From Eledone cirrhosa (lineage: Eukaryota), in contig OZ024756.1 of NCBI GenBank assembly GCA_964016885.1, forward strand, positions 13,764,001 to 13,828,000: DNA of 64,000 bases. Reading direction: 5' to 3'. Made by a program: the position numbers and the translations under genes. The notes under the pieces were generated by a model that was not told the DNA's origin, made no database searches, and was given only the letters and a program-made list of their open reading frames with translations. This document shows positions 14,891 through 15,935 of this stretch, one piece after another. Position 1 is the first letter of the stretch. Every line of letters begins with the position of its first letter.

Positions 14891-15935
14891 TGTGAATATA
14901 GACATAGAATATTCGAAAATATTCTGTATGTTTATAATAAACATTTTGAAGACCTAATCGCTATAGAATAGAATACGTCACGTATTACAATTAGATTCTC
15001 GATAAAAGCAAGGGAAGTAATCTACGCGTTTCATTCTCGTTAGAAATCATCAGGACTACATATCCAGTGCTTTTATCGAGAATGACACAGCTAGAGACTT
15101 ATAGAATACTTAGCTGTGTACAGGAACTGGTTTGAAAGAGCGGTTGCCGGTCCGGCAGAAATTAGAAATTGGAATAAATGCTCTGAAATAGCGATATATA
15201 TGTGAATATAGACATAGAATATTCGAAAATATTCTGTATGTTTATAATAAACATTTTGAAGACCTAATCGCTATAGAATAGAATACGTCACGTATTACAA
15301 TTAGATTCTCGATAAAAGCAAGGGAAGTAATCTACGCGTTTCATTCTCGTTAGAAATCATCAGGACTACATATCCAGTGCTTTTATCGAGAATGACACAG
15401 CTAGAGACTTATAGAATACTTAGCTGTGTACAGGAACTGGTTTGAAAGAGCGGTTGCCGGTCCGGCAGAAATTAGAAATTGGAATAAATGCTCTGAAATA
15501 GCGATATATATGTGAATATAGACATAGAATATTCGAAAATATTCTGTATGTTTATAATAAACATTTTGAAGACCTAATCGCTATAGAATAGAATACGTCA
15601 CGTATTACAATTAGATTCTCGATAAAAGCAAGGGAAGTAATCTACGCGTTTCATTCTCGTTAGAAATCATCAGGACTACATATCCAGTGCTTTTATCGAG
15701 AATGACACAGCTAGAGACTTATAGAATACTTAGCTGTGTACAGGAACTGGTTTGAAAGAGCGGTTGCCGGTCCGGCAGAAATTAGAAATTGGAATAAATG
15801 CTCTGAAATAGCGATATATATGTGAATATAGACATAGAATATTCGAAAATTGTAATACGTGACGTATTCTATTCTATAGCGATTAGGTCATTCAAAATGT
15901 TTATTATAAACATACAGAATATTTTTCGAAATATT
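14891..15935 (-). mobile_element. Tandem 310-bp hammerhead-containing repeat (retrozyme / Penelope pLTR-like), 3 copies + partial + inverted end
   Basis: TGTGAATATAGACATAGAAT recurs at 14891, 15201, 15511, 15821; 15851-15935 is an inverted copy of the unit start; one hammerhead motif per unit. Confidence 0.85.
15017..15059 (-). ncRNA. Minimal type-I hammerhead ribozyme (further copies at +310 and +620)
   Basis: Minus strand GTAGTC-CTGATGA-tTTCT-aacg-AGAAt-GAAA-CGCGTA-GATTAC: stem I GUAGUC/GAUUAC, intact core, palindromic ACGCGT stem III, GUA triplet. Confidence 0.8.

Follow-up and report, generated by a model that had tools for sequence, protein, structure and literature searches.

The window analysed here is a 64,000-nucleotide stretch of the Eledone cirrhosa genome (contig OZ024756.1, positions 13,764,001 to 13,828,000), in which an array of tandem 310-bp units is embedded in a long AT microsatellite tract. 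The units starting at 14891, 15201, and 15511 are identical (0 of 310 positions differ between them), and period-310 identity spans 14888–15850, so that the fourth unit consists of 30 bp. Positions 15848–15935 are an inverted copy of unit positions 18–102 with 96.6% identity and are adjoined by a run of 200 N at 15936–16135. The original prediction had listed three identical units, a partial fourth, and an inverted copy running into the gap, and each of these observations was reproduced; the inverted piece is the start of the family's second arm and not incidental. Monomer positions are numbered from the base after the predicted ribozyme cut (position 1 = window 15022, minus strand). The features of the locus are as follows.

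14883..14895, minus strand: short outer end, monomer ~128–139, an AT run matching the target; likely the first start of reverse transcription, by analogy with PMC11167929
14888..15850, minus strand: arm 1, 3.1 identical 310-bp units by sequence, with the ribozyme-sense 3′ end pointing left into (TA)n
14995..15083, minus strand: 16-bp perfect helix closing the ribozyme domain (15068–15083 with 14995–15010; fold z −4.24), recurring in each unit
15017..15059, minus strand: type I hammerhead motif of unit 1, predicted cut between 15023 and 15022
15161..15170, minus strand: internal copy of the tail site (monomer 163–172), where the second arm ends at other loci
15327..15369, minus strand: type I hammerhead motif of unit 2, predicted cut between 15333 and 15332
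15637..15679, minus strand: type I hammerhead motif of unit 3, predicted cut between 15643 and 15642
15848..15850: arms meet head to head here and share 3 nt of microhomology (monomer 103 and 31)
15848..15935, plus strand: start of arm 2, monomer 31–115, with three differences near the contig edge
15936..16135: assembly gap, in which the remainder of arm 2, with its tail end, is predicted to lie on the basis of 59 of 59 complete pairs at other loci

The array is thus one insertion of a genome-wide family, with its second arm lost in the gap. We found no ORF in the array at the window and no tRNA gene in the 310-bp unit; when the unit was read as a circle, the longest stop-free frame was 59 codons in the sense and 46 codons in the antisense direction, in keeping with the earlier statement that no ORF is present. 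Other repeats in the window include homogeneous minisatellites of 48 bp (29039–30146), 20 bp (38400–43261), and 51 bp (53171–55544), and a 159-bp tandem repeat at 45128–45774 (4.1 copies, 98% matches) with an apparent long internal palindrome.

The minus strand of each unit carries a motif with a 6-bp stem I (GUAGUC/GAUUAC, including one G-U pair), an intact CUGAUGA and GAAA core, a stem II consisting of a U-U followed by 4 bp and closed by an AACG loop, a palindromic ACGCGU stem III, and a predicted cut after GUA. The type I hammerhead, the U-U at the first pair of a short stem II, and the palindromic stem III with a GUA site had all been predicted and were recovered in every unit. The original prediction had also described the hammerheads of such repeats as minimal, which does not apply here: with an intact core, a 6-bp helix I, a 4-bp helix II, and a short (1–2-bp) palindromic helix III, this motif has the canonical metazoan type I form, which is reported to need a dimer (PMC4209133). 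A motif descriptor had a single match in the unit and none in 5000 dinucleotide shuffles. The Rfam search that had been proposed as a check returned no hammerhead match to the array at E values up to 10; a fluoride riboswitch match over the array was attributed to chance, and Rfam matches over 12000–20000 were microsatellite-driven miRNA hits only. By energy alone, the isolated motif was predicted not to adopt the hammerhead fold (z −0.10 and +1.21), and the monomer hammerhead fold was worth only −1.4 kcal/mol; pairing of the ACGCGU palindrome in trans could give a −7.5 kcal/mol duplex. The circular unit folds better than shuffled sequences (z −4.5), its minimum-energy fold misplaces the hammerhead core, and the opposite strand is more stably folded (−77.9 vs −67.8).

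Genome copies were counted by sequence patterns, not by DNA similarity search. An exact 31-base core pattern gave 4,226 matches and a degenerate version 18,133, with 0 matches for the controls. We parsed 70 insertions, all on one contig (C1), from 10 regions selected by the hammerhead pattern, 20 selected mostly by short ends (many of them without the exact hammerhead pattern, and two chosen by tail ends), and 40 from a run of short-end matches. One region holds the same insertion twice, which was counted twice in the pair and haplotype tallies and once in the private-variant and junction-overlap tallies; two small junction pieces of locus L071 were left out of the parse, and locus L089 is incomplete at the edge of its sampled region. 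Fixed ends at the 70 loci, together with at least 1,338 short ends genome-wide (a lower bound from a strict pattern), show dispersal as a unit; tail ends numbered 753 on the forward strand alone, the reverse count being inflated by multiple matches. Minor variation within loci was ~0.1%. Two outcomes that the original prediction regarded as incompatible with it, collapse of the array in raw reads and attachment of the unit to an RT ORF, were not encountered: the tandem unit with (TA)n junctions is present in the independent deep run X5, multi-unit arrays occur at 70 other loci, and none of the 70 sampled insertions includes an ORF arm. Single 340-nt contigs in runs of other organisms (X1, X3, and X4) were considered as an abundant circle and rejected; because a host SINE-like repeat is 6- to 50-fold deeper than these contigs in the same runs, compared to ~45-fold in X5, they are best read as trace host DNA.

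To describe how the family is inserted, we compared the ends and junctions of its arms. Among the 70 insertions, 60 were head-to-head pairs of arrays in (TA)n and 10 were single short-end arms. In all 59 complete pairs, one arm has a short end and the other a tail end, and two short ends were never paired, an informative result given that most loci were selected via a short end; at loci chosen by the hammerhead pattern alone, 9 of 10 were also short-plus-tail pairs. True short ends lie at monomer ~128–132 and merge into the AT run of the unit (to 139), whereas tail ends cluster at 163–165 and 168–172, placing the tail site ~25–40 nt beyond the short site. Both outer ends fall in (TA)n, where a target-site duplication is unreadable. 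At the head-to-head junctions, 43 of 60 overlap by 0–7 bases, 27 of them by at least 2. Arm lengths fit an exponential distribution with a mean of 1.47 kb (KS p = 0.26) and reach 45 units, 46 of 59 pairs have more than one unit in each arm, and the longer arm is the short-site arm in 28 pairs and the tail-site arm in 31. Gap-free loci (L031–L040, no N) have the same two-arm architecture. At one locus (L083:2100–2370), a 271-bp filler between the arms is a 97–98% copy of a repeat clustered at 19–24 Mb of contig C25, whose frames look like those of what we take to be a non-LTR retroelement; the filler fits either a template switch onto another RNA or repair.

Published Penelope-like elements show an inverted truncated copy, a one-sided tail of 30–40 bp, and (TA)n targets (PMC8557442; PMC3846280). 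A Penelope-like protein, PAc, cuts and extends both target strands in vitro and initiates synthesis at two sites within the RNA, which mark the limits of the tail (PMC11167929). The 310-bp family carries the corresponding marks, an inverted second copy (60 of 70) and a one-sided tail (59 of 59 complete pairs), and autonomous RT/GIY-YIG elements of the same genome (L133, L258, and L261) have the same end geometry. We therefore consider mobilization of the family by a Penelope-like enzyme very probable. The short and tail ends of all 59 complete pairs, the (TA)n targets, and the lack of an ORF in 70 insertions support the earlier suggestion that a Penelope-like RT acts on the unit in trans. Penelope-type families are also nested in each other's (TA)n ends at L035, L042, L101, L144, and L254 and thus share a target.

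The arms retain information about the template from which they were copied. Both arms share one haplotype in 45 of 46 testable pairs, compared to a mean of 8.3 and a maximum of 17 in shuffled pairings, with 18 haplotypes among the testable pairs; therefore one RNA or one clone fed both arms. Thirteen private substitutions are fixed, being present in all units that cover them in either arm; of 48 minor substitutions, just 2 occur in register in the two arms. The predicted cut site is traversed by 120 of 130 arms (603 crossings), inner ends lie within 5 nt of it in 1 of 130 cases compared to 4.2 expected at random, and inner ends are mildly non-uniform around the unit (Rayleigh p ~0.02). These crossings, with no pile-up of inner ends at the cut, led us to reject a cleaved linear monomer as template, and the letters at the cut junction, constant within loci with one locus excepted, led us to reject template jumping between linear monomers. 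The fixed private substitutions, the scarcity of shared minor ones, and the exponential arm lengths argue for a circle as the probable template. At two loci (L149 and L162), a variant is confined to the first unit of each arm, which counts against a monomer circle, because a one-unit circle cannot yield such a variant; these two in-register shared variants suggest that in some events the template may have been a multimer. Some arrays grew after insertion, among them a 14-kb, 45-unit arm at L154 that repeats blocks of variants.

Fixed variants within the motif affect N7, loop II, G-U/A-U swaps, and the U-U of stem II (to A-U); they keep or improve pairing, and none lies in the core, although 0 core changes among ~30 distinct fixed variants is not significant by itself. 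A subfamily at L071, L077, L151, and L169 (and L166) has an additional base two positions past the cut site, which at four loci accompanies replacement of the basal U-U of stem II by A-U, a possible compensation. An older relative, family B, has a ~320-bp unit, 5,031 tail-motif matches, short arms, and the same short/tail end geometry; its pieces are 71–85% identical, and its hammerhead has the same core and stems that differ in sequence yet remain paired. This pairing is stronger support for retention of the ribozyme than the absence of core variants. Family B was seen at L033:5860–6215 and L091–L120, and no linked ORF was found in 30 loci. Other tandem hammerhead repeats, with an ACUAGU palindrome and periods of 467, 470, and 511 bp (L093:546/1013; L116:2452/2922; L131:9068/9579), appear by their motifs to be further retrozyme-like families.

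Two families of the same genome are candidate partners; GIY-YIG scoring covered 150 of 10,597 candidates. One, a young family placed in the Hydra clade by the motifs RWR, DKT, CxCX5C, CxxC, and CxH as listed in PMC8557442, has at least 18 copies with a 758-codon stop-free frame among the 150 listed, of which the 15 top copies score identically. Copies at L258:2608–7480, L261, and L243 have a microsatellite-filled 3′ region. Its terminal hammerhead matches the core and stem II of the 310-bp unit at 26 of 28 bases, its tail is ~66 nt, and its start region cannot be aligned with the unit; its hammerhead has a 4-bp stem III and 10,768 exact pattern matches (6,746 forward vs 4,022 reverse). A second family is related at 73% protein identity, and a decayed related piece lies in the window at 50950–51160. 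The other candidate, found by its GIY-YIG domain at L133, is 48% identical to an RT plus GIY-YIG protein and presumably belongs to a Neptune-like clade; it is equally young (arms 99.7% identical), has a tail of ~40 nt, and shares the U-U and palindromic stem III design with the 310-bp unit. No partner sharing the start region was detected by significant match among 12 candidate regions or 45 downstream regions, a small part of the genome's families, and no linked match to the unit was found at 30 GIY-YIG loci and 15 long-ORF loci; an apparent linked partner at L042 proved to be a nested family B insertion. By-eye likenesses of the unit to the Hydra-type start region (z −0.5) and to the Neptune-type end at L133 (514 of 1000 shuffles as good) were not significant, and the ends of the L123 family showed no likeness by eye.

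We consider it probable that a young non-coding hammerhead family enters (TA)n as two arrays, likely written by a Penelope-like RT-endonuclease circling a 310-nt circular RNA from two fixed starts. Arrays would be transcribed as multimers, in which hammerheads are predicted to pair via the ACGCGU palindrome and cut once per unit, and the monomers would close into circles. An enzyme of the Penelope type would then nick both (TA)n strands and prime synthesis at the short and tail sites that make up the observed footprint. Both copies would continue round the same RNA and stop at random, and the inner ends join, mostly via a few shared bases as seen at the junctions. A narrower version, double rolling-circle reverse transcription in which a Penelope-like dimer on a single ribozyme-made circle primes from both microsatellite strands one tail-length apart and writes kilobases of satellite per event, is advanced tentatively. 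In published work, only 1 of 9 frog dimers was cleaved (10.64898/2026.07.22.740005), and PAc used uncleaved RNA in vitro (PMC11167929).

The same Penelope-like mobilization could instead have copied multimeric RNA made from an existing array, either linear and uncleaved or circular, with a hammerhead that is weak or dispensable for copying. The two variants common to both arms in register favour such a template, insertion by PAc takes place with unprocessed RNA and is unchanged by hammerhead mutations (PMC11167929), and crossing of the cut site and random inner ends fit it equally. However, a one-unit bottleneck followed by amplification would then be needed, because 13 private variants are fixed throughout all units and 46 of 48 in-register minor substitutions are unshared. 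In addition, random truncation alone would shorten arrays every round, and the hammerhead core is preserved between the 310-bp family and family B; we judge this explanation fairly unlikely. A second route to paired arms, in which only one arm is primed on the target and the first cDNA then folds back to give the other (the self-priming model of PMC3846280), with a cut at the complementary site, would also account for the shared haplotype, and it draws support from inner ends ≤10 nt apart in 8 of 59 pairs (p = 0.045) and from several junctions in the unit's own palindromes. Yet the inner ends of the other 51 pairs are unrelated, either arm may be the longer (28 short-site, 31 tail-site), the L162 variant is shared in register from the outer ends and not from the centre, and in vitro PAc uses the two start sites on both strands (PMC11167929), making fold-back an improbable source of the second arm.

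Very improbable, in our assessment, is that the unit belongs to an ORF-bearing Penelope-like element as its ordinary terminal repeat and was later multiplied into arrays by unequal crossing-over, a route to satellites discussed in 10.64898/2026.07.22.740005. Some long arms did expand after insertion, and a Hydra-type element of this genome has a terminal-repeat hammerhead matching 26 of 28 bases of core and stem II, but an ORF arm is absent from all 70 insertions, what lies upstream of the hammerhead is in every case the preceding unit, both arms are longer than one unit in 46 of 59 pairs, minor variation is ~0.1%, and family B is likewise ORF-free in 30 loci. That the array adjoins a gap and that arm 2 has three differences near the edge might point to an assembly artefact at a contig end; this possibility is negligible given the same architecture at gap-free loci L031–L040 with locus-specific haplotypes and the tandem unit with (TA)n ends in independent run X5.

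Compared to known systems, the 310-bp family has the sequence marks of non-LTR retrozymes (tandem hammerhead units, non-coding, dispersed), and this class would be its best reading on the sequence data. Metazoan retrozymes likewise consist of dispersed, tandem, non-coding units of a few hundred bases with one type I hammerhead each and coexist with Penelope-like elements, and axolotl motifs share the U-U at the base of stem II and a short palindromic stem III; cleavage and circles have been demonstrated for retrozymes of other species (PMC7229834; 10.64898/2026.07.22.740005). An RT plus GIY-YIG ORF beside the terminal repeat, which marks an autonomous Penelope-like element, was found in 0 of 70 insertions. 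Endonuclease-bearing Penelope-like elements resemble the family in their head-to-head arms, single tailed end, (TA)n targets, microhomology junctions, and hammerhead upstream of the start sites (PMC8557442; PMC3846280; PMC11167929), but the 310-bp family is ORF-free and both of its arms are multimers of up to 45 units. MRC1 and other non-autonomous Chlamys elements are also non-coding Penelope dependants with multicopy head-to-tail insertions, but their 3′ ends are similar to that of their autonomous partner, and canonical hammerheads are absent from most of them (PMC8557442); for the 310-bp family, no partner with a matching start region was found among the regions compared.

Penelope mobilization of retrozymes has been proposed from co-occurrence and terminal-repeat similarity, and both retrozyme papers propose tandem cDNA made by RT, with the preprint also offering later unequal crossing-over (PMC7229834; 10.64898/2026.07.22.740005). 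In these papers, the mechanism, the identity of the mobilizer, and whether arrays are made at insertion or later are left open. The main text of PMC7229834 does not contain the word 'inverted', an analysis of head-to-head arms or tails was not seen in the preprint text consulted, and a literature search gave no description of retrozymes arranged as double arrays with short and tail ends, although supplements may hold such structures. The evidence on how the family moves is unusually direct. The family is so young (~0.1% variation within loci) that its insertions still display two ends, a junction, and the template haplotype, and because a short unit is passed many times, start sites, stopping, and shared template use are clearer than in full-length Penelope copies. 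With intact candidate enzymes in the same genome, the mobilization model is testable in a published in vitro format. Approximately 5.6 Mb of the genome (18,133 units × 310) would be satellite born by retrotransposition, and, if the double rolling-circle reading is true, the arrays would document circular-RNA retrotransposition in an animal on the scale of populations and would be a natural system for writing circles into a genome.
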